Assembly (NCBI GenBank): GCA_016787995.1
Contig: JAEUTB010000111.1
Location: forward strand, 14,775 to 78,774
Length of the DNA: 64,000 bases
Source of the DNA: Flavobacteriales bacterium
GTDB lineage: Bacteria; Bacteroidota; Bacteroidia; Flavobacteriales_F; PHOS-HE28
Direction of reading: 5' to 3'
The position numbers and the translations under genes were made by a program. Positions within the stretch are counted from its first letter, which is position 1. Every line of letters begins with the position of its first letter. Positions 11,012 to 64,000 of the stretch are shown here, one piece after another. The notes beneath the pieces are model-generated. The model was not told where the DNA came from. It worked only from the letters and a program-made list of their open reading frames with translations, and ran no database searches.

Positions 11012-11980
11012 CTACCGCGTGCTCTCCACGCCGATCACCGGGGTGTTGAGTGATTGCACGTACCAATCGCTGCCGCTGACATCGTCGTAGCCAAAGCCGT
11101 ACGCCGAGGAAGCGGTGTACAGCACGATGCGGTTGCCGGCCACCACCTCACCGCTCACCGGGGCATTGATGGACTGCACATACCAATCGCTGCCGCTGAT
11201 ATCGTCGTAACCGAAACCGAACGCCGTGTTGGCCGTGTACAGCACGATCCGCGCATTGGATGTGACCGCCCCCAGCACTTCTTCGTTCAAGGTCTGCACG
11301 TACCATCCACTTCCACTGGTGCTGTTCTTACCGAATCCGTAGGCGGTGGTCGCCGTGTACAGGACCACACTACTGTCCGATGACAATGCACCGATCACCG
11401 GACCATCGATGCTCTGGACATACCAGCGACTACCCGAGATCTCGTAGAAGCCAAAGCCGAAAGCCGTGGTGGCGTTCCAGATCACCGCACGGCCATCGGT
11501 GGTGTGGATCTCGCACGCTCCCGGACCTTGCGGACCCACCGGCCCCTGCGGACCTTGTGGACCGGCTGGGCCCACGCTGTTGTTGGCTGCGAAGAGCGCG
11601 TAGGGTACGCTGAGCAAGGGACTCACGCCCGTGATGCTGTAGTTCGATCCACCGTTGGGATCCGTTTCGGTCTTGAGGAAGAAGGGACCGTTGCCCCAGT
11701 TGATGCCGCTGAAGCTCCCGCTGACCGGAGTCCCACCACCGATCTCAAGCGTAGCGAGGCCGTTGGCATTGGTGCTGGTGCTGTGCGTTTCCACGTACAC
11801 GGCGGTGCCACTGGCGCTGCCCTGTAGAACGCTGGCGCGCAGGCCCACGGCGCCGCTCACCACGAGGTTATCGCTGGCATCACGCAGCACGGCTTGGAAG
11901 GTCATGCGCTGCGGTGCCTGGGCCGAAACGAGCACGGCTGCGCCCGACAGCGTGGCGAAGAAGAGGTGGCGGAGCGTCAT
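11012..11980 (-). CDS. secreted collagen-like / tail-fibre-like repeat protein
   Basis: Start MTLRHLFFATLSGAAVLVSAQ. A G-X-Y run, GPAGPQGPQGPVGPQGPG, lies at 11519-11572. Four tandem ~40-aa repeats (VLYTAxTAxGFG...SGSxWYVQS) lie at 11015-11488. The ATG overlaps the stop of the upstream gene (ATGA, 11977-11980). Confidence 0.7.
   Translation of the reverse strand: MTLRHLFFATLSGAAVLVSAQAPQRMTFQAVLRDASDNLVVSGAVGLRASVLQGSASGTAVYVETHSTSTNANGLATLEIGGGTPVSGSFSGINWGNGPFFLKTETDPNGGSNYSITGVSPLLSVPYALFAANNSVGPAGPQGPQGPVGPQGPGACEIHTTDGRAVIWNATTAFGFGFYEISGSRWYVQSIDGPVIGALSSDSSVVLYTATTAYGFGKNSTSGSGWYVQTLNEEVLGAVTSNARIVLYTANTAFGFGYDDISGSDWYVQSINAPVSGEVVAGNRIVLYTASSAYGFGYDDVSGSDWYVQSLNTPVIGVESTR
11015..11488 (-). 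repeat. 4 x ~120-bp tandem coding repeats
   Basis: Near-identical nucleotide blocks, e.g. cacgtaccaatcgctgccgctgacatcgtcgtagcc versus cacataccaatcgctgccgctgatatcgtcgtaacc. They encode the repeated WYVQS / YGFG module. Confidence 0.85.
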
Positions 11981-24438: not shown

Positions 24439-26898
24439 ATGGTCATCCGTCCACTCCTCTCCCTGCTCCTTGCCTCGACCGCCAAAGCCTTGCATAGCTC
24501 GCCCCAGCGCAGCGAAGGAGAGGCGAAGGCATGGCACTTTGCATTCCCCCTGCGCCTGCCCTTGCGCCTGCTCCTGCCCCTGGCATTCCCCTTGCCCCTG
24601 CCCCTGGCATTCCCCTTGCCCCTGCCCCTGCGCCTGCCCCTGGTATTCCCCCTGCTCCTGCTCCTGCACCTGACCCTACCCCTGCTCCTCACCCTTCCCG
24701 CCGCCGCTCAGACCTGGGAACTCGTCACCCCCGTGAAGACCCTCAGCGACCTGGCCGCCGTACACCAGCGTAGTCCCTTTGAGGCCGTAACCATCGACCG
24801 CACCCTGGGCCATGTGCTCAAGACCACCGACGCCGGCGACAGCTGGGTGCGCATGCCGTACAACATGATCGACAAACCCCGCGCACTGGTGATGTTCGAC
24901 GACGAGCGCGGCATCATCGGCGCCGACCTTAGCCGCTTCTACCGCACCACCGACAACTGGAACAGCTACACCACGGTGAACCTCTTCGGCTTCGGCAATG
25001 CGGCGTGCCTCAGCTTCGTGGACGACCAGCTCGGCTGGGCCGCCAGCGAGAACGGCAAGATCGCGCACACCACCGACGGCGGCGCCACCTGGACCCTACA
25101 GACCAGCGGCACCACCAATGCCATGGTGGCCTTGCACTTCGTGAACGAGCAGCTCGGTTTCGCGGCCGCCACCGGTGCTCTGTTGTTGCGCACCAACGAC
25201 GGCGGCACCACGTGGACACCCATCACCGCACCCATCAACTTCAACCTGCGCCGCTTCCACTTCTTCGATGCGCAGAACGGCATCGCCGTAGGCCTCGGCG
25301 GCCAGCTCCTGCGCACCACCGATGCGGGCCTCACCTGGACCGACCAAGCCAGCCCCACCACCAACAGCCTGCTCAACCTCTTCGTGCGCGGCGACCTTCT
25401 GATGGCCGTGGGCAACAGCGGCACCGTGATCCGCAGCACCGACGGCGGCGACACCTGGAGCGCGCAGACGCTGGAACCCAACCAGGACCTCTACAGCGTA
25501 TCCATCGACCCCAGCGGCATCGGCCTGATCACCGGCGAAGCGCGCGTGTACCGCACCACCGACAACGGCGCCACGTGGGCACCCGTGCAGATCGGCACCT
25601 ACCACAGCCGCCTGAACAAGGTGAGCTTCGGCACCGACCAGCTCGGTGCAGCCGCGGGCTGGCTGAACCAGGGCGGATATGAGAACGGCGTGATCCGCAC
25701 CACCGACGGCGGCCGCCACTGGAGCAACGTGACCGGCGGCACGGCGCAATGGCTCGGCGTACACCTGCGGCCCAACGGCGTGGGCTGGATCGGCGGCGGA
25801 CAAGGCGTTAACCGCAGCACCACCGACCACTTCGCCACCACCGCCAACCACCCCGGCCCCAGCGTGGCCGTGCGCTGCGTATGGGCCCTCAGCGCCACCA
25901 CCGCCGTCATGGGCGGCGGCTACATCAACGGTGGCGTCTACCGCACCACAAACGGCGGCAGCACCTGGCAACAGGTCCTCAACGGCGGCGACATCTACGA
26001 CATCTGGTTCATCAACGACACCCTCGGTTTCTGTGGCGGCGCTGGCGGCAGCATCGCACGCACCACCGATGGCGGCGCCACCTGGACCTGGATCGATACG
26101 CCCAGCAACTCCGACATCAACAGCATCTTCTTCCTCAACGATACCCTCGGCTGGTTCGCCGGCAACGGCGGCGCCCGCACCACCGACGGCGGCGCCACCT
26201 GGACGCTCCTGAACGAATTGCCGCAGTTCACCATGAGCGTTTTCTTCACCGACCCCGACACCGGCTACGCGGTGAACGTGAGCGGCTACGTGCTGCGCAC
26301 CACCAACGGCGGCGACAACTGGGACGAGATCGTGCCCGCTCCCTTCGACGTCAGCATCGGCGACGCCACCCTGGTGGACGGCACCATCGTGGCCGTAGGC
26401 GACCAGGGCGATGTGTTCCGCGCCACGCTGGCCTGCCCACCTGCGCCGCCGATGCCCACGGTGCTCCAGAGCGGCAACACCTTGTGCACCGCCTACCGCC
26501 CGCAGATCCAATGGTACCTCAACGGCGATCCCCTGCCCGATGCCACGTGGCCCTGCCTCACCACCAGCGCCACCGGCAGCTACACCGTGGTGGTGACCGA
26601 CGCGCTCGGCTGCACCAGTGCGCCCTCCGCACCGATACAAGTGATCAGCACGGCGGTGGAAGAGCACCCCTCACCCACCTTCACCCTCTACCCCAACCCC
26701 ACCTCCGCCGACCTCACCGTGCGTTTCGCCACCGATGGCCACCACCACCTCGAGCTCTGCGATGCACAAGGCCGTGTGTTGCGCACGTTGTCCACCCAAG
26801 GCACACAGACCGTGCTCGACCTGCAGGCATTGCCGACAGGGCTGTTCGTGGTGCGCGAGGTGGGGCGTGGTGCGGGGGTAAGGGTGGTGCGGGAGTGA
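24439..26898 (+). CDS. BNR/Asp-box (Ycf48- or sortilin-like) beta-propeller repeat protein with T9SS CTD
   Basis: There are at least 10 copies of the (S/T)xDxGxTW Asp-box (TTDGGATWT, TNDGGTTWT, STDGGDTWS...). The C-terminal type-A CTD reads LYPNPTSADLTVRF...LPTGLFVVRE. The N-terminus contains an unusual Pro-Leu repeat. Confidence 0.8.
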   Translation: MVIRPLLSLLLASTAKALHSSPQRSEGEAKAWHFAFPLRLPLRLLLPLAFPLPLPLAFPLPLPLRLPLVFPLLLLLHLTLPLLLTLPAAAQTWELVTPVKTLSDLAAVHQRSPFEAVTIDRTLGHVLKTTDAGDSWVRMPYNMIDKPRALVMFDDERGIIGADLSRFYRTTDNWNSYTTVNLFGFGNAACLSFVDDQLGWAASENGKIAHTTDGGATWTLQTSGTTNAMVALHFVNEQLGFAAATGALLLRTNDGGTTWTPITAPINFNLRRFHFFDAQNGIAVGLGGQLLRTTDAGLTWTDQASPTTNSLLNLFVRGDLLMAVGNSGTVIRSTDGGDTWSAQTLEPNQDLYSVSIDPSGIGLITGEARVYRTTDNGATWAPVQIGTYHSRLNKVSFGTDQLGAAAGWLNQGGYENGVIRTTDGGRHWSNVTGGTAQWLGVHLRPNGVGWIGGGQGVNRSTTDHFATTANHPGPSVAVRCVWALSATTAVMGGGYINGGVYRTTNGGSTWQQVLNGGDIYDIWFINDTLGFCGGAGGSIARTTDGGATWTWIDTPSNSDINSIFFLNDTLGWFAGNGGARTTDGGATWTLLNELPQFTMSVFFTDPDTGYAVNVSGYVLRTTNGGDNWDEIVPAPFDVSIGDATLVDGTIVAVGDQGDVFRATLACPPAPPMPTVLQSGNTLCTAYRPQIQWYLNGDPLPDATWPCLTTSATGSYTVVVTDALGCTSAPSAPIQVISTAVEEHPSPTFTLYPNPTSADLTVRFATDGHHHLELCDAQGRVLRTLSTQGTQTVLDLQALPTGLFVVREVGRGAGVRVVRE
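24541..24700 (+). repeat. Pro-Leu-coding hexamer / 24-nt tandem repeat inside the N-terminus of the BNR protein
   Basis: The unit cccctggcattccccttgcccctg is repeated at 24577-24600 and 24601-24624. A degenerate third copy lies at 24637-24660. The whole tract is CC(C/T)(C/T)TG-periodic. Confidence 0.85.
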
Positions 26899-53577: not shown

Positions 53578-54651
53578 TCAGTATTGGAACACGGTGGTCT
53601 TGCCGTTCAACACCTCCTTCACATCGTGCACGACACTCGGGCTGTTCATGTAGTACCAATGGTGCGCGATGTTCTCTCGAAGGGTCTTGTCATCCGAGAT
53701 GTAACTGACATCGGCTTGGATCACGCCGTCCGGCAGGGGCACGGTGCGCCGGGCTCCCCAACGTCCCAGTCGATTGAAAGCGTTCTTGGTGCGTTCACTG
53801 ATCCCCAACGCCTTGTCCTCGTTGTGGTAGTACACGTGCATGCGCTCGCCCAGCATGATGGCATTGTGCAGGGGTTTGCCCGGCTCCAGACCATCATCAT
53901 CCACATCGGCGGCCATCAGGAGGATCTCGCCGAAGACACTGTTGGGGCGCACGTTACGCGCGAAGAGTTCGGCCATCATGCTCTCGAACACCCGGTTGCC
54001 CATGCTGTGGCACATCAGGTGGATCTTCTGGGCGCAGAAGACGTTGTTCATGTCCTTCACCCTTCGCTTTCGTGCTGCCGTGACCAGGTCTTGGAAGAAA
54101 CTGGTCATGGACTGGAAAGAGCGCGCCATGGCGTAGCCGGTCTTCACGGCATCGCGTGCATCATCCCGGTACCGGGTGAGGCTGCCGCGTGATGGCCAAG
54201 TGAAGAGGATGATGTGCCCGATCGGGCTATCAGCCGGTGCCACGTAGCGCTCGTGAAGGTCGGCCAGTGTGGTGAGCGCGCCTTTGAGGTCACTGTTGTA
54301 GCCGTGGACGAAAACGAGGAAGTGGCCTTCGCCGGCCTTGTCAGCCTTCCCCGTGGCATGGAGTTCCTCGAACACCTGTATGCTGGGCGGTACCACCCCT
54401 GCTGGATACTTGCCATGGAGCTCTTTGTACTCCATTTCGGCATCGGAGAGGTCGGGGAGGATCTCGATCTTGAAATCGTCCAGGTTGCGCGCCTTCGCCG
54501 GATCGAAGGTGACCGTGCCGTACCGCAGGTTGTCCATAGCCTCTTCCTTGCCATCGGCGCGCAGGCATTCACTCCTATTCACGGAGACGTACCCGCCCTT
54601 GCGGCTACCTTTGATGATCTGGCGGTTAGTGATGATGTAATGCGTTGCCAT
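53578..54651 (-). CDS. alpha/beta hydrolase, DUF900-like
   Basis: Internal start MATHYIITNRQ. Motifs are FLVFVHGYNSD...ILFTWPS and the nucleophile elbow LMCHSMGNRV. Confidence 0.7.
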   Translation of the reverse strand: MATHYIITNRQIIKGSRKGGYVSVNRSECLRADGKEEAMDNLRYGTVTFDPAKARNLDDFKIEILPDLSDAEMEYKELHGKYPAGVVPPSIQVFEELHATGKADKAGEGHFLVFVHGYNSDLKGALTTLADLHERYVAPADSPIGHIILFTWPSRGSLTRYRDDARDAVKTGYAMARSFQSMTSFFQDLVTAARKRRVKDMNNVFCAQKIHLMCHSMGNRVFESMMAELFARNVRPNSVFGEILLMAADVDDDGLEPGKPLHNAIMLGERMHVYYHNEDKALGISERTKNAFNRLGRWGARRTVPLPDGVIQADVSYISDDKTLRENIAHHWYYMNSPSVVHDVKEVLNGKTTVFQY

Positions 54652-54676
54652 TTGCAATAGAGTTGGATGATCGCTA

Positions 54677-55396
54677 TCAGCCCTTGTTCGGATCCACGAA
54701 ACCTGTGACCCGATCGATGAGTTCCTCGAACCGGGTGGGATCGAAGCCCACGATGAAACCGATGCCGGACAGCACGCAAGCCATCCGTTTGTAGGCTTCT
54801 TCACGGATGTCCGATCCTTCCGTGGTGACATCGCTGAAGAGGTGACCTTCGAAGAAGCCCCAGGTCGCGATGAGCACCAAGTACACGAAGAAGCCACGGC
54901 TAAGGGAAACCCATGGAAGCTCGTACATGAAGGAGTACCGTCTGATCATGCGTTCAGGGATCTTACCCTCCCCCTGTGCAAAGGCGTTCAGCAAGCGGAT
55001 CCACATGCCCTCGAATCGGAAGTTGTAGCTGGTGCAGCCACCGACGAATGCAGCCAGAACGCACAGGAGTCCCACGTTGGTCGGCGTCCAATAGAATAGG
55101 ATGGCGGCCAGGGCTTCGCTCCTTGTCAACGTTTCAACGAACGCACGTGGGGGGTCGAATTCCAAGGTGCCACATTCGTAGTAATTCCGCATGGCGATGC
55201 GGTAGGGCGCACTGTCCATCGAAGAGCCGACGGTGAACACGGCTACCCATGCTGCAATGCCTAAGAGACCAAGACCCATGTACAGCCCTTGCCATAGCCG
55301 AAGGGGCTTCAACTTGGCCATTTGTTCGAGCACCGACCCACGTCCACTCGGTGGTTGCTTGGGCACTTGATCCGCTGTGTCTTCTGTCGTGGTCAT
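54677..55396 (-). CDS. multi-pass membrane protein, unknown function
   Basis: Internal start MTTTEDTAD. At least 5 hydrophobic helices (e.g. LYMGLGLLGIAAWVAVF, VGLLCVLAAFVGG, FFVYLVLIATWGFF). Confidence 0.5.
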   Translation of the reverse strand: MTTTEDTADQVPKQPPSGRGSVLEQMAKLKPLRLWQGLYMGLGLLGIAAWVAVFTVGSSMDSAPYRIAMRNYYECGTLEFDPPRAFVETLTRSEALAAILFYWTPTNVGLLCVLAAFVGGCTSYNFRFEGMWIRLLNAFAQGEGKIPERMIRRYSFMYELPWVSLSRGFFVYLVLIATWGFFEGHLFSDVTTEGSDIREEAYKRMACVLSGIGFIVGFDPTRFEELIDRVTGFVDPNKG

Positions 55397-55409
55397 CGGT
55401 TGCGACTTT

Positions 55410-56057
55410 TCATTCCACCCACCGATACCCCAACACCCTCCGCGCCCCATACCCCGCCACACACACCTTGTTGCTTTGGTTGCCGCCCAACACTTGGTAG
55501 CCCGTGCCTTTCGTTTCGAGATAGAAGGCCACATGCCCCGCATTGGGATTGTTCGGATCGCTGCGATCGAACACGACCACACAGCCGTATTCGGGTGCGC
55601 TCAACTTGCGGCCCCACTTCAGCCAGCTGCGCGCGGCAGCGGAATTGGTGCCGACGATGCCCGCCTGTTGCATGCACCAGTTCACGAAACCCGAGCACCA
55701 AGGCGTTTCATCGCTGGTGGCCGGGTTGGTGGTACTCCGCAGGTATTGGATGATACGCGGGTTATGCTCCGGTCCTGGGTATTCCTGCACGCCCAGCTCT
55801 GCGCGGGCGATGGTGATCCATGCGGGTTCGTCCACCGGCGGGGCGCCGGGTATGGCTTCCACATGGTATTTGTTCACCCAACCTTCCAGCGTGCCGTCGC
55901 GCAAGGTGGCCTGCACACGGAGCCAGTCGCCCTGCGGTCCGGAGAGGCGCAGCAAGGGAGTACCATAGGGCAGACGGCCGATGATGTTGTCGCCGAGGGC
56001 GGCGGTGCGTCGTATGCGCAGCACGCTGGCCGTGGTGCGGTGGGTGGGCAATGGCAT
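55410..56057 (-). CDS. SH3-like plus TIGR02594/CHAP-like cell-wall amidase family protein
   Basis: Start MPLPTHRT. The SH3b-like region is ...GDWLRVQA...EGWV. It is followed by NPRIIQY...TPWCSGFVNWC...GHVAFY....LGGNQSN, a Cys-His papain-like pattern. Confidence 0.7.
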   Translation of the reverse strand: MPLPTHRTTASVLRIRRTAALGDNIIGRLPYGTPLLRLSGPQGDWLRVQATLRDGTLEGWVNKYHVEAIPGAPPVDEPAWITIARAELGVQEYPGPEHNPRIIQYLRSTTNPATSDETPWCSGFVNWCMQQAGIVGTNSAAARSWLKWGRKLSAPEYGCVVVFDRSDPNNPNAGHVAFYLETKGTGYQVLGGNQSNKVCVAGYGARRVLGYRWVE

Positions 56058-56248
56058 GGTGGTGGTCTCCTCCTCTACTGTTCGTGCACCGTGCACGAGC
56101 AGTGGGTCAAACCTCATGCTCCTAAGCGCCCTTCACCAAGCGCCGAGGGGGGGCGATCCACCGGGGTGTTCCCCGCAATTCACCCGGGCAAGGGTGTGGC
56201 GGATGGTGCGGAAGACTTAACACACGATTCGGTGGACTTGTCCTAAAC

Positions 56249-56914
56249 TTGAGGCACCACCGCATGTTGCCCGCTCCCATCCCGTTGGCCTTGATCGACG
56301 ACCATACGCTGTTCCGCAGCGCCTTGGCCGATATGCTCGCGGGTGATGCGCGCTTTGAAGTGGTGGTGCAGGCAGCGCACGGCGCCGAGTACCTGCGTGC
56401 GGTGCAAGGCGGTGTACAAGTGGCGGTGGCGGTGGTGGACCTGCACATGCCGATCATGGACGGCTTCGAGACCATCGCGTGGATCCGCGATCATGCGCCG
56501 GGCACACGGGCGGTGGCCCTCTCCTTCGACCTGAGCGAGGAGGTGCGCCAGCGCGCGCTGAAGGCCGGTGCCTGCGGTTTCCTGCGCAAGGACACCACCA
56601 AGGACCATTTCCTGGCGGCGCTGATGCAGGTGGCCGTGGTGGGGCAATTGCCGCCCGATGCGGCGCAGCACGACCAGCGCGCCGAGCAGGCGCAGAGCCG
56701 CAGCGAGCTGCTAGCGAAGTTGAGCCAGCGCGAGCTGGAGTACATGCGGCTGCTCTGCGCCAACGGCGACAGCACCGCCGAGCAGCTGGCGGCCCAAATG
56801 CAAGTGGGCGTGCGCACGGTGGACGGCTACCGCGAGGGCGCCTACCGCAAATGCCAGGTGCATTCGCGCGCCGGCCTGGTGGCCTTCGCCTACAAGTGGG
56901 GCTTGTACCCGTAG
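56249..56914 (+). CDS. NarL/FixJ (LuxR-HTH) response regulator
   Basis: The receiver has LALIDDH, the phospho-acceptor VVDLHMP, ALS and K. The C-terminal LuxR HTH is LSQRELEYMRLL...TVDGYREGAYRK. Confidence 0.85.
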   Translation: MRHHRMLPAPIPLALIDDHTLFRSALADMLAGDARFEVVVQAAHGAEYLRAVQGGVQVAVAVVDLHMPIMDGFETIAWIRDHAPGTRAVALSFDLSEEVRQRALKAGACGFLRKDTTKDHFLAALMQVAVVGQLPPDAAQHDQRAEQAQSRSELLAKLSQRELEYMRLLCANGDSTAEQLAAQMQVGVRTVDGYREGAYRKCQVHSRAGLVAFAYKWGLYP

Positions 56915-57136: not shown

Positions 57137-57805
57137 ATGGCCGGCGAGAACCCCTTACCCACCACCGTGGCGGTGGTGCATACGGATGAGCTGATGCGTG
57201 TGGGCATCCACACGGTGGTGGAACATGAAACCGACCTGCAGGTGCTGCATACGGGCGAACGCCTGGATGCCTTGACCGCCGAGGTGGCCACAGGTGCGGA
57301 AGCCGAGCCGCAGGTGCTGGTGGCCCAGCTGGCCGCGCCGTTGGACCTGGGCTGTGCAGCCCTTCGTAGGTGGCGGCGGGCTTGTCCGCAGGCGCCCGTG
57401 GTGGTGATCGGCGAGCTGACACCGCTGCTGGTGCAGCGCGCGGTGGAGGCCGGGGCCATGGGCGTGTTGCCGCTGCACGTGGCGCGCACGGAGCTGGTGC
57501 AGTGCATCCGCACGGTGGCCGGTGGTGGGCTGCACGCGAACAGCTGGTTGCAAGCGCGGTTGCGCGCGGGCCATCAACGGCTGCGCAGCGCGGGTGCCGA
57601 CGCCGGTGTGCTGCTCACGGCGCGCGAAGCGGAAGTGCTCCGCCTGATGGCGCACCCCGCCGGTCATACCTACCAGGTCATCGGGGAGCAGCTCGGGATC
57701 AGCGAGGCCACGGTGCGCACCCACCGCGACAACCTCTTCGCCAAGTTGGAGGTGAACAACCGCCAGGCCTTGGTGGCCGAAGCCACGAAGCGCGGATTGG
57801 TGTAA
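57137..57805 (+). CDS. atypical LuxR-HTH response regulator with degenerate receiver domain
   Basis: Start MAGENPLPTTVAVVHTDE. The expected acidic pocket and phospho-Asp are replaced (HTDE; VLVAQLAAP). The LuxR HTH is intact: LTAREAEVLRLM...ISEATVRTHRDNLFAKL. Confidence 0.75.
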   Translation: MAGENPLPTTVAVVHTDELMRVGIHTVVEHETDLQVLHTGERLDALTAEVATGAEAEPQVLVAQLAAPLDLGCAALRRWRRACPQAPVVVIGELTPLLVQRAVEAGAMGVLPLHVARTELVQCIRTVAGGGLHANSWLQARLRAGHQRLRSAGADAGVLLTAREAEVLRLMAHPAGHTYQVIGEQLGISEATVRTHRDNLFAKLEVNNRQALVAEATKRGLV

Positions 57806-58017
57806 CGGCTCGTTCGTTCCACCGCGTTGATCGGCAGGTGCTGCGACGAACGCTGTTCTATGGAACGCGCGCGCGAGGCACCGATGGTGCGCGTAACGCT
57901 GGCGCGTGATCCGTGGAAGGTGCACATGCTGTTCGGATGGGAGGCACCGGCGCGGCGGGGTAGGCAACTGCCAGCAAGAGTGGTGCAACTCTCCGGGCAG
58001 GGTGCGCACCTGCTCAT

Positions 58018-58395
58018 GCAAGGTGTACAACTGTCCGCGCAAGGTGTACAACTGTTCGTGCAAGGTGTGCAACTGTCCGCGCAAGGTGTACAACCGTTCG
58101 TGCAAGGTGTACAACTGTCCACGCAAGGTGTACAACTGTCCGTGCAAGGTGCACAACTGTCGGTGCAAGGTGCACAACTGTCCGTGCAAGGTGTGCAACT
58201 GTCCGTGCAAGGTGTACAACTGTCCGTGCAAGGTGCACAACTGTCCGTGCAAGGTGTACAACCGTCCGTGCAAGGTGTACAACTGTTCGTGCAAGGTGCA
58301 CAACTGTCCGTGCAAGGTGTACAACCGTCCGAGCAAGGTGTACAACTGTTCGTGCAAGGTGTACAACTATCCGTGCAAGATGTGCACCTCCTGGT
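58018..58395. repeat. 21-bp tandem direct repeat array (17 good copies plus degenerate flanking copies)
   Basis: The unit GCAAGGTGTACAACTGTCCGT starts at 58018, 58039, 58060 ... 58354 with exact 21-nt phase. Variation is mostly transitions at three positions. Degenerate copies lie at ~57977-58017 and 58375-58395. Confidence 0.95.
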
Positions 58396-58630
58396 GCGTG
58401 GAAGTGGACATGATGGATGGCTCGCACCGCGGGTGATCCCGTTGTGCCACAAAAGCGTTGGCCGCGTGGACTATTCGTGCGAACCGCTGTGGGCGCGGTC
58501 CCTGGCGCATGGGCATCCGCCGTTCGGCGGAGGGCGGCCCCCGCCCTATGGCGTGGATAGGGTAACGAACAGGTTGCGCCCAGCGGATAAGGGCCACAAA
58601 CCGGGCCTCGGCCCACAAAAAAACAAACCG

Positions 58631-59263
58631 ATGTTGAAGCAGTATTACATCCTGAAACTGGGGTTGGACCGGATCACCCCGAGCGCCTTGCTGGTGAAAG
58701 CCCGCAACATGGTGAGCAAACTGACCGGCAACGCCGCCTTCGCCACCCCCACCCCGCCCTTGGCGGCGGTGACCGCAGCGGCGGACCTGCTGCAAGGGGC
58801 GATCAACGCATACGAGGCCAACCCGGGTCCGAACGAGCTCACGGACCGCACCATCGCCTTCGAGCAGGTGAAGGGCTTGGTGACGGACCTGGGCGGCTAC
58901 ATCCAAGCGGCCAGCGGTGGCGACCTGGCGCTGATCAAGAGCGCGGGCTGCCAGGTACGCAAGGAGCGCACTCCGGTGGGTGAGCTGCCGGCCCCTCGCG
59001 GTATCTCCGCCGTGGGTACGGCACTTACGGGTCGCATCGACATCAGCTGGGGCGGGGTGCGCGGTCGCCTGATGTACGAGCCCGAGATCTGCGAGGGCGA
59101 TCCCAACGTGGAGAGCAATTGGCGCGTGCTGCAGCTCACCAGCAAGAACCGCTTGTCGGTGACCGGCCTCAAGAGCGATGTGCTGTACTACTTCCGCGTG
59201 AAGGCCATCGGCACCGCGGGCGCTGGTCCGGTGAGCGAACCTGCAGTAGCCAAGGCCGCCTAA
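58631..59263 (+). CDS. fibronectin type III domain protein
   Basis: The ATG at 58631 is preceded by an A-rich leader (cacaaaaaaacaaaccg). The C-terminal FN3 signature is ...LTGRIDISWGGVRG...YEPEI...WRVL...LSVTGLKSDVLYYFRVKAIG. Confidence 0.7.
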   Translation: MLKQYYILKLGLDRITPSALLVKARNMVSKLTGNAAFATPTPPLAAVTAAADLLQGAINAYEANPGPNELTDRTIAFEQVKGLVTDLGGYIQAASGGDLALIKSAGCQVRKERTPVGELPAPRGISAVGTALTGRIDISWGGVRGRLMYEPEICEGDPNVESNWRVLQLTSKNRLSVTGLKSDVLYYFRVKAIGTAGAGPVSEPAVAKAA

Positions 59264-63053: not shown

Positions 63054-63725
63054 GTGCTAACGTTGCTATCACTCTGGGGCTGGATCTCCTTGGGCAAGTG
63101 CGCGCTGGTGTTCGCGGCGCTGGTAGCCTGGTCGCTGGGCTGCAAAGCGCTGGGCGCAGGTTCCAACTGGCTGGGACTACAACTCGTGGCGGCGCTGGTG
63201 GCGGAATGTGCCGCCACTGCGCTGTCCTTCCAGGGCGAGAACAACCTGCGCGTGTACGATGCCTACCTGCCCGTGGAGTTCGTGGCGCTGTTGTGTTATG
63301 CCCTGACCTGGTCGGGCTTGCTGCGTGCCAAGGGTATCATCCTCGGCGTTTGCCTGACCCTGTATGGTCTTGTGCTTTGGAACGAGTTCCCAACGGCTTG
63401 GATCAAGCAGTCCTTCACCACTAACAGTTACATGCTCGGCGGCCTGGGCCTCGTTTGTGCAAGCGTGTTCGCGCTGTTCCGGATCGCCATGCGTTCGGAA
63501 GTGCCCATGATGAAGGTGCCCAGCACATGGGTGTTGCTGGGCATCGTGGTCTTCTTCGGCGGCAGCATCCCGCTCTTGGGTCTCACCAATGCGCTCATCG
63601 AACGCCAAGTGGCCTGGGCGCCGAACATGTACTTCATCAACGACGCGCTCTTCCTCTTCCGCTATGGTTGCGTGCTGGTGGCGGTGTTCATCGGTCTGCG
63701 TAACCCTACCCCGTCACTTGTATGA
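63054..63725 (+). CDS. multi-pass membrane protein
   Basis: 223 aa with about 6 hydrophobic helices. Its stop overlaps the ATG of the downstream kinase (ATGA at 63722-63725). Confidence 0.55.
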   Translation: MLTLLSLWGWISLGKCALVFAALVAWSLGCKALGAGSNWLGLQLVAALVAECAATALSFQGENNLRVYDAYLPVEFVALLCYALTWSGLLRAKGIILGVCLTLYGLVLWNEFPTAWIKQSFTTNSYMLGGLGLVCASVFALFRIAMRSEVPMMKVPSTWVLLGIVVFFGGSIPLLGLTNALIERQVAWAPNMYFINDALFLFRYGCVLVAVFIGLRNPTPSLV

Positions 63726-64000
63726 GCGACCTGTTCGTCACCATCACCATCAGCACGCTCATCGTGTTGCTCTTCCTCGGATTGGTGGTCACACTGCTCG
63801 TGCTCAACAACGCGCGCCGCATCCGCCACCGCGCCGAAGTGGCGGAGCTGCGCCAGCAACAGGACCGCGCCGTGATGGACGCCGAACGTGAAGCCACACG
63901 CCACACCCTGCGCGAGCTGGGCAACGAGCTGCACGATAATGTGGGGCAGTTGCTGGTGGTGTCGCAACTCGGGGTGAACACGGTGGTGGACGAATTGGGT
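63722..64000 (+). CDS. sensor histidine kinase (HisKA_3/NarX-DesK type), N-terminal fragment; 3' end lies outside the window
   Basis: This ORF is not in the track because it runs off the window. My own translation is MSDLFVTITISTLIVLLFLGLVVTLLVLNN...RELGNELHDNVGQLLVVSQL. It has a TM helix followed by an ELHDxxGQxL H-box. Confidence 0.8.
   Translation, partial: MSDLFVTITISTLIVLLFLGLVVTLLVLNNARRIRHRAEVAELRQQQDRAVMDAEREATRHTLRELGNELHDNVGQLLVVSQLGVNTVVDELG

Follow-up and report, generated by a model that had tools for sequence, protein, structure and literature searches.

What does a long, evenly phased tandem repeat do in front of a gene for a small cytoplasmic protein? The question is raised by a stretch of 64,000 nucleotides from a Flavobacteriales bacterium (GenBank assembly GCA_016787995.1, contig JAEUTB010000111.1, positions 14,775 to 78,774 of the forward strand; hereafter the window), in which an array of about 17 units of 21 bp lies between a gene for an atypical LuxR-type regulator and a gene for an FN3-domain protein. 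An initial annotation had offered three explanations for this array, i.e., a multi-site operator or nucleoprotein scaffold, a contingency locus of variable copy number, or a heptad-repeat N-terminal extension of the FN3 protein. We find that the array is real, non-coding, locked in its period, conserved in its length and tied to the FN3 gene family, and we tentatively propose that it is a docking platform for the adjacent regulator. The elements at the centre of the question are the following, in window positions:

57975–58016: two decayed 21-bp units (starts 57975 and 57996) in register, the upstream edge of the array (register layout; at 57997 the core with two mismatches)
58017–58373: seventeen 21-bp units with consensus TGCAAGGTGTACAACTGTCCG, non-coding and without indels (Tandem Repeats Finder, register layout; unit unique in the genome)
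58374–58394: one decayed unit, TGCAAGATGTGCACCTCCTGG, the downstream edge of the array (register layout, core search)
58395–58630, plus strand: spacer, probably containing the promoter and 5' leader
58631–59263, plus strand: gene for a 210-amino-acid cytoplasmic FN3 protein (Pfam fn3, 24.5 bits), the gene that such arrays travel with

Tandem Repeats Finder placed the array at 58017–58383 with a period of 21, 17.5 copies, 89% matches, 0% indels and a score of 587, and the register layout resolved 17 well-formed units up to 58373. The phased array and the decayed copies on both of its sides, as described in the initial annotation, were hence recovered, and the distances to the neighbouring genes were also found as described: 211 nt separate the stop of the regulator gene at 57805 from the first good unit, and 247 nt the array end at 58383 from the ATG of the FN3 gene. 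The 14-mer core of the unit occurs 19 times in the array, compared with 2.5 occurrences expected for the whole window; it is about tenfold over-represented in the window, and none of 100 shuffles reached a count of 25. Units vary recurrently at positions 1, 10, 11, 16 and 19, nearly always by transitions, with the exception of one unit that begins with A in place of T or C. Three further changes, each in a single unit, are isolated and fall outside these positions. The sequence TGTACA, which had been assigned to most units, is present in 11 of the 17. The GC content of the region is 64–67%. The unit itself is confined to this single locus: it was found nowhere else in its own 3.3-Mb, 74%-complete assembly, it did not form arrays in 40 relatives, and no other assembly in the metagenome and species-genome collections holds it.

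The layout, by contrast with the unit, recurs, and the window array is one copy of a family-wide module tied to the FN3 gene family. Running Tandem Repeats Finder on fetched loci, we detected an own array at 47 of the about 60 FN3 paralog loci of the genus, where between 5 paralogs (own genome) and 18 paralogs (a congener) are found per genome. The base period of these 47 arrays is 21 bp in 40 cases and 22 bp in six, and one array has only a 42-bp period; their median length is 361 bp and their median distance to the ATG 236 nt. Each paralog locus has a unit sequence of its own, unrelated to the others. In the window's own genome, arrays stand upstream of the paralogs at C161 (21 bp, 20.7 copies), C31 (42/126 bp) and C264 (22 bp, 18 copies); the last of these modules (C264:24747–25146) has a small XRE-type helix-turn-helix (HTH) gene divergently upstream and no LuxR gene. 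Searching species genomes with a profile built from the close FN3 homologs gave 29 loci. Moreover, distant homologs in Chitinophagales/Bacteroidia, Prosthecobacter, Limisphaerales and Abditibacteriaceae have upstream arrays with periods of 21, 42, 63 or 84, and the array-before-FN3 layout is common to Chitinophagales, Verrucomicrobia, Abditibacteriaceae and the window genus. Full-text literature searches found no published description of this module.

These arrays do not encode protein. Six of them have a 22-bp period, 10 of 46 genus arrays contain stops in all six frames, and at 10 of 11 orthologous loci (152–230 codons read) an in-frame stop upstream of the ATG interrupts any continuous frame from array to FN3 gene; we therefore conclude that the array is non-coding. 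In the ortholog with 93% protein identity, this stop lies 65 codons before the ATG, between array and start. The initial annotation had correctly read the unit as the heptad QGVQLSV in the frame of the FN3 gene. Its statement that all six frames are open holds for the consensus unit but not for the array, in which five of six frames are open and the unit at 58353 (CAACTATCCG) creates a TAG in one minus-strand frame. Gene calls on the minus strand across two related arrays, i.e., 170 amino acids at L033 (4246–4758) and 78 amino acids at L035 (4504–4740), are spurious because the repeats are stop-free.

Period and length stay fixed as the sequence of the arrays changes rapidly. The closest ortholog, L031, encodes an FN3 protein 93% identical to that of the window and is followed by the same two genes, for a 133-amino-acid protein and a GNAT protein; its array has a 42-bp period with TGCAACTTGCA cores, and its unit matches the window unit at 12 of 21 positions. 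The window's own genome also contains an orphan, degenerate 21-bp array (C240:46046–46467), which lies 264 nt upstream of a DJ-1/PfpI-type gene rather than an FN3 gene. As its units (GTGCAAGGTGTATTCC...) are intermediate between those of the window and L031, array units are homologous, yet fast-diverging. L084 and L090 are the sole pair of related arrays that could be aligned. They are 97.3% identical in the FN3 coding sequence, 93.6% in the leader and 85.7% in the array, i.e., the array diverges about five times faster than the gene, and there is no indel over about 370 bp. A tandem repeat with substitutions at 14% of its positions and not a single slippage event is constrained in length and phase. 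At the L018/L090 locus (G001:C7, JADJCX010000007.1), the FN3 gene is broken by an in-frame stop or a frameshift, and a frameshift also affects the HTH part of the LuxR gene; despite this damage, the L090 array has stayed whole and keeps phase with that of L084.

Conservation within the unit is patchy: a core of about 11–13 bp is kept and a linker varies. The autocorrelation of the per-position conservation, expected at −0.05, is +0.075 for lag 1 and −0.18 for lag 9. Such a pattern of core and free linker is a signature of recognised sites. Also, strand composition shows no significant bias (GC skew 0.02, AT skew −0.04), which fits a role at the DNA level rather than at the RNA level.

Which protein might read these sites? 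Two regulator genes precede the array:

56249–56914, plus strand: gene for a canonical NarL/FixJ-type response regulator with receiver and GerE HTH (Pfam Response_reg 69 bits, GerE 31 bits)
57137–57805, plus strand: gene for an atypical LuxR/NarL-type regulator with a degenerate receiver (GerE 57.8 bits), the candidate reader of the array

The product of the first gene has NarL/UvrY-like matches in NCBIfam, below the equivalog cut-offs; it is a neighbour whose membership in the module is uncertain. The product of the second matches Response_reg with 21.5 bits, under the cut-off of 30.2 bits, and has VAQLAAP around the position of the phospho-acceptor aspartate, where canonical paralogs have IVDLRMP. 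The dead receiver domain proposed in the initial annotation is therefore plausible.

Our leading reading, tentative as it is and given not quite even weight, is that the array serves as a helically phased docking array for this atypical regulator upstream of the FN3 promoter. The array would be the non-coding upstream control region of the FN3 gene. Each 21-bp unit, equal to two turns of B-DNA, would offer one site, and about 17 bound units would line up along one face of the helix. The array would end about 60–100 bp upstream of the promoter, which would lie within the first half of the 247-nt spacer. Within this subclade of FN3 loci, the most likely reader would be the phosphorylation-independent regulator encoded at 57137–57805, whose dimers might tile the array, one per 21 bp, and so set FN3 transcription. 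Protein binding, the identity of the reader, the promoter position and the direction of the effect, be it activation or repression, are inferred.

Gene order and rates of change are consistent with such a partnership. A same-strand LuxR-type gene precedes the array at all 13 species-level subclade loci with upstream DNA, and at about 17–20 of 58 loci in the genus. The mean pairwise identity within the subclade is 31% for the regulator's receiver, 34% for its HTH and 60% for the FN3 protein; the regulator thus evolves about twice as fast as FN3, HTH included, which matches the fast-changing arrays. Among 16 arrays of the LuxR clade, 8 contain the motif TG(C/T)AC at least 0.45 times per unit; among 39 other arrays, 3 reach 0.5 or more (Mann–Whitney p = 0.004, for a motif chosen after looking and for loci that are related). 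Dimers of BvgA and other NarL/FixJ-family proteins reportedly tile promoters at about 21–22-bp spacing on one face of the helix. An occupancy of this size fits the unit length. One close likeness is to the fha and ptx promoters of Bordetella, which share with the window a LuxR/GerE-type HTH protein, encoded next to the array in the window, and sites of about 21–22 bp on one helix face upstream of a promoter. The window differs in having 17 near-identical tandem units instead of about three graded sites, a regulator with a degenerate receiver, a unit that is replaced between close relatives, and sister arrays at loci that lack a LuxR gene. Of the three explanations in the initial annotation, the operator or scaffold is nevertheless the best supported, and it is stronger now than from the window alone, because the array belongs to a family-wide, period-locked class; the adjacent regulator is its putative binding protein.

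Several observations weigh against a docking array for the LuxR-type regulator. About 28 of the 47 array-bearing genus loci have no LuxR gene, and among these loci no other upstream gene is shared; the LuxR protein can therefore not be the general reader. Dimer sites would be expected to show dyad symmetry, but the arrays are only slightly enriched in it (p ≤ 0.05 for 6 of 46); it is not significant in the window array, and we dropped it as a defining feature of the arrays. The TGTACA dyad, with an arm of 3, is no longer than chance (p = 0.78 compared with shuffled units). Inverted repeats such as 7-2-7 heptads or 20-bp palindromes would suit an HTH dimer; the window unit has only an imperfect 10-bp dyad, GGTGTACAAC. 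Loci whose recognition helices are alike show no visible likeness in their units, the loci with GTCGGTACCGAC units have different helices, and no simple rule matching recognition helix to unit sequence appears. No extra copies of the unit were found near either regulator gene. No sigma-70-type promoter or terminator-like site was found in the spacer, and a sigma-54 motif was found neither in the window nor at a consistent position in the Flavobacteriales loci. Finally, to our knowledge seventeen sites are far above the number at any described NarL-family promoter.

Arrays persist at many loci and in several phyla without a LuxR regulator, and the general reader may therefore be the FN3 protein or DNA geometry. 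We regard it as possible, though on balance unlikely, that the function resides in period and total length (a period-locked block of about 360 bp) rather than in base sequence; the array would then co-travel with the cytoplasmic FN3 family across at least three phyla and be read by the FN3 protein through a novel DNA-binding fold, or by the geometry of the DNA, with LuxR, XRE and sigma-54 regulators as lineage-specific add-ons.

The first form of this idea, that the helical N-terminal domain of the FN3 protein binds its own upstream array for autoregulation or for a centromere- or iteron-like assembly, with regulators being optional, is doubtful when taken by itself. The FN3 gene is the only constant companion of the arrays across paralogs and phyla, and its product lacks a signal peptide and, by a count of its residues, carries a net charge of about +5. 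AlphaFold2 predicts an N-terminal three-helix bundle followed by a C-terminal FN3 domain (pLDDT 89.8). The FN3 domain matches structures in the PDB; it was the only part of the protein to find matches in PDB and BFVD, and the N-terminal domain alone gave no PDB fold match at E < 0.5, so that this domain may bind nucleic acids. However, searches with the protein revealed no recognisable DNA-binding fold or family, and nothing was found in PHROGs, NCBIfam or PADLOC. The 78 homologs, all named hypothetical or FN3-domain protein, have a common Met start and about 210 amino acids, and the window protein shares the family motifs TGN..F.TP.P.L and YVQAASNGD. Judged by the names that the homologs carry, the source is an uncultured Flavobacteriales bacterium of high GC content. 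It also speaks against this reader that the 93%-identical ortholog, whose 14 residue differences are scattered and not clustered, faces a unit with so few matching positions, and that the FN3 protein evolves slowly compared with arrays that change at near-neutral speed.

Known DNA–protein assemblies built on repeats resemble the module in part. The iterons of plasmids and phages (R6K, RK2, P1, F) are likewise direct repeats (17–22 bp) at about 21–22-bp spacing beside the gene for a possible binder. Unlike iterons, arrays of the window type are chromosomal, occur in 5–18 copies per genome and have far more units each, and the adjoining gene encodes an FN3 protein of unknown fold. Neither a Rep-like winged-helix protein nor DnaA boxes nor an AT-rich region for unwinding were seen. 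With a LuxR regulator and an FN3 protein as neighbours, 64–67% GC and 4–5 such loci per genome, the window array does not qualify as an iteron array. Partition centromeres (F sopC with 12 × 43 bp, R1 parC) similarly consist of about ten or more units in tandem beside a small gene, in some cases with a dyad inside the unit. In contrast, the module is present in many copies per chromosome and keeps a fixed position relative to the downstream start codon, which points to transcription control; genes of the ParA/ParB, ParM/ParR and TubZ/TubR types were absent among the ten neighbour genes scanned, and we rejected a centromere. The window array also does not belong to the REP/RAYT repeats, as its unit is unique to the locus and looks different from a REP-like array in the same genome. 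The latter (C224:4054–4208) consists of 7.8 copies of a 20-bp unit with the palindrome GGGCGACG-TTCA-CGTCGCCC, ends 18 nt before an IS200/RAYT-like transposase gene and looks like a REP/RAYT pair.

Equally doubtful is the second form, in which geometry is the reader: small bends or anisotropic flexibility would add up in phase along a 21–22-bp repeat, so that the block of about 360 bp curves or wraps around RNA polymerase or a nucleoid protein and sets promoter activity or acts as a barrier. Conservation of period and total length under near-neutral drift of the sequence, the lack of universal dyads and the many loci without a cognate regulator gene would all be accommodated. Moreover, modelled arrays curved a little more than those built from shuffled units (mean rank 0.42; 9 of 46 in the lowest decile compared with 4.6 expected). 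The curvature signal is, however, weak and depends on the wedge angles assumed, and for the window array the model predicts a rather straight path (end-to-end ratio 0.85, rank 0.75). The 22-bp units also have no compensating lower twist (745 compared with 715 degrees per unit), and a conserved core with a variable linker points to sequence recognition instead.

In orthologs the gene-proximal half of the spacer is conserved and the part next to the array is variable. Common to the orthologs are a locus-specific dyad element, a CGGATAAGGG-like box, a GC stem with tetraloop and an A-rich leader; in the window these are:

58517–58546, plus strand: two adjacent GC-rich dyads, CCGCCG-TT-CGGCGG and GGGCGG-CCC-CCGCCC (read by eye)
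58584–58593, plus strand: box CGGATAAGGG, some 45 nt upstream of the start codon, with columns conserved when 16 orthologous spacers are aligned
58603–58614, plus strand: GC stem with tetraloop, GGGC-CTCG-GCCC, followed by an A-rich leader (read from the sequence)

The GC stem, which in the window lies about 17–28 nt before the start codon, reads GGGC-TTCG-GCCC in L033 and L035. The two dyads read as the local form of a locus-specific element made of an arm, its complement and the repeated arm (A-B-A'). In its exact form (arm of at least 6), this element is present at 19 of 66 loci, where shuffles would give 1.2, and most copies lie about −130 to −90 relative to the ATG. An exact copy was not detected in the window. 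At L035, for example, it reads CCCCGTTG-AA-CAACGGGG-N7-CCCCGTTG, and in an alternative form two tandem hairpins share the same stem. The element may act as RNA, in the manner of an attenuator, or as a second operator particular to each locus. A GGAAC-N16–17-TTTCAG pair was considered as a promoter, but its position agrees among no more than 7 of 66 loci and we do not rely on it. At L094 (Limisphaerales, Verrucomicrobia), a sigma-54-type motif, TGGCATTGCCGTTGCT, lies about −182 from the FN3 start, between array and gene. This locus is thereby reminiscent of sigma-54 enhancers, with their upstream sites 100–200 bp from the promoter; unlike these, the Flavobacteriales loci have no consistent sigma-54 motif, and there is no gene for an enhancer-binding protein near the window array.

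An array acting as RNA, either as a long 5' untranslated region or as a separate repeat RNA with units as protein-binding or processing modules, seems improbable to us. The locus-specific paired dyads and the tetraloop hairpin could be RNA structures, and, speculatively, the unit size is like that of small guide RNAs. Composition, however, lacks strand asymmetry, and so do the mismatches in the leader dyads, with G-T (G-U in RNA) and A-C at 8 and 7. The leader folds no better than shuffles (z = −0.31), positions 57700–58700 have no match to a known structured RNA in Rfam at E ≤ 1, and many unit dyads have loops of 0–1 nt and would be unable to form RNA hairpins.

We give slightly less credit still to a contingency locus, in which slippage would alter the copy number and thereby switch or tune FN3 expression between cells or strains. 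As in contingency loci and other variable-number tandem repeats, an intergenic tandem repeat stands upstream of a gene, units that are 89% alike make slippage physically possible, and short-read assemblies frequently break at the arrays (L031 starts inside its own). But the unit is long, with 21 bp, and both the period and a length near 360 bp are kept across unrelated units. The pairs compared did not differ in copy number: the absence of slippage between L084 and L090 argues against a contingency locus, and L033 and L034, which come from two samples, are identical. A change by 21 bp would, moreover, shift neither the reading frame nor the promoter spacing as known contingency repeats do. This proposal of the initial annotation is hence disfavoured.

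A coding repeat, be it a heptad-repeat protein on either strand or the proposed extension of the FN3 protein, is already refuted at the family level and deserves virtually no credence: five open frames in the window array, and four of five variable positions that fall in one codon phase, with changes silent in the frames VVHLART (minus strand) and ARCTTVR (plus strand), are outweighed by upstream stops, the common Met start of the homologs, 22-bp periods and arrays closed in every frame, the phase bias has a chance probability of about 0.14 by our own calculation and was rejected as a coding signature, neither frame has a plausible start, and the minus-strand open reading frame lacks a start codon in the vicinity of the repeat and stops right at the array edge.

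Some further observations concern the surroundings. On the minus strand, window positions 53578–56117 encode a DUF900 alpha/beta hydrolase, a membrane protein and a peptidoglycan hydrolase with SH3 and CHAP domains. The window ends (63722–64000) in the start of a gene for a putative membrane-anchored sensor kinase, as read from the N-terminus. Related loci contain genes for Type I restriction-modification and caspase-like proteins. Two other repeats occur in the window, i.e., a run of about 24 copies of the hexamer CCCCTG (24547–24689) and 1.8 copies of a 120-bp repeat (11031–11248).

If the array is a tiled platform for the regulator, it would be by far the largest such bacterial array known to us, and a natural case in which operators and their regulator diversify together under a fixed spacing. 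If, instead, the FN3 protein or the geometry of the DNA reads it, the module would be a new kind of gene-control or nucleoprotein element, present in several phyla and, in this genus, in up to 18 copies per genome. The module also explains recurrent assembly breaks and the spurious long open reading frames reported by gene callers, and it gives a testable handle on a large protein family of no known function.

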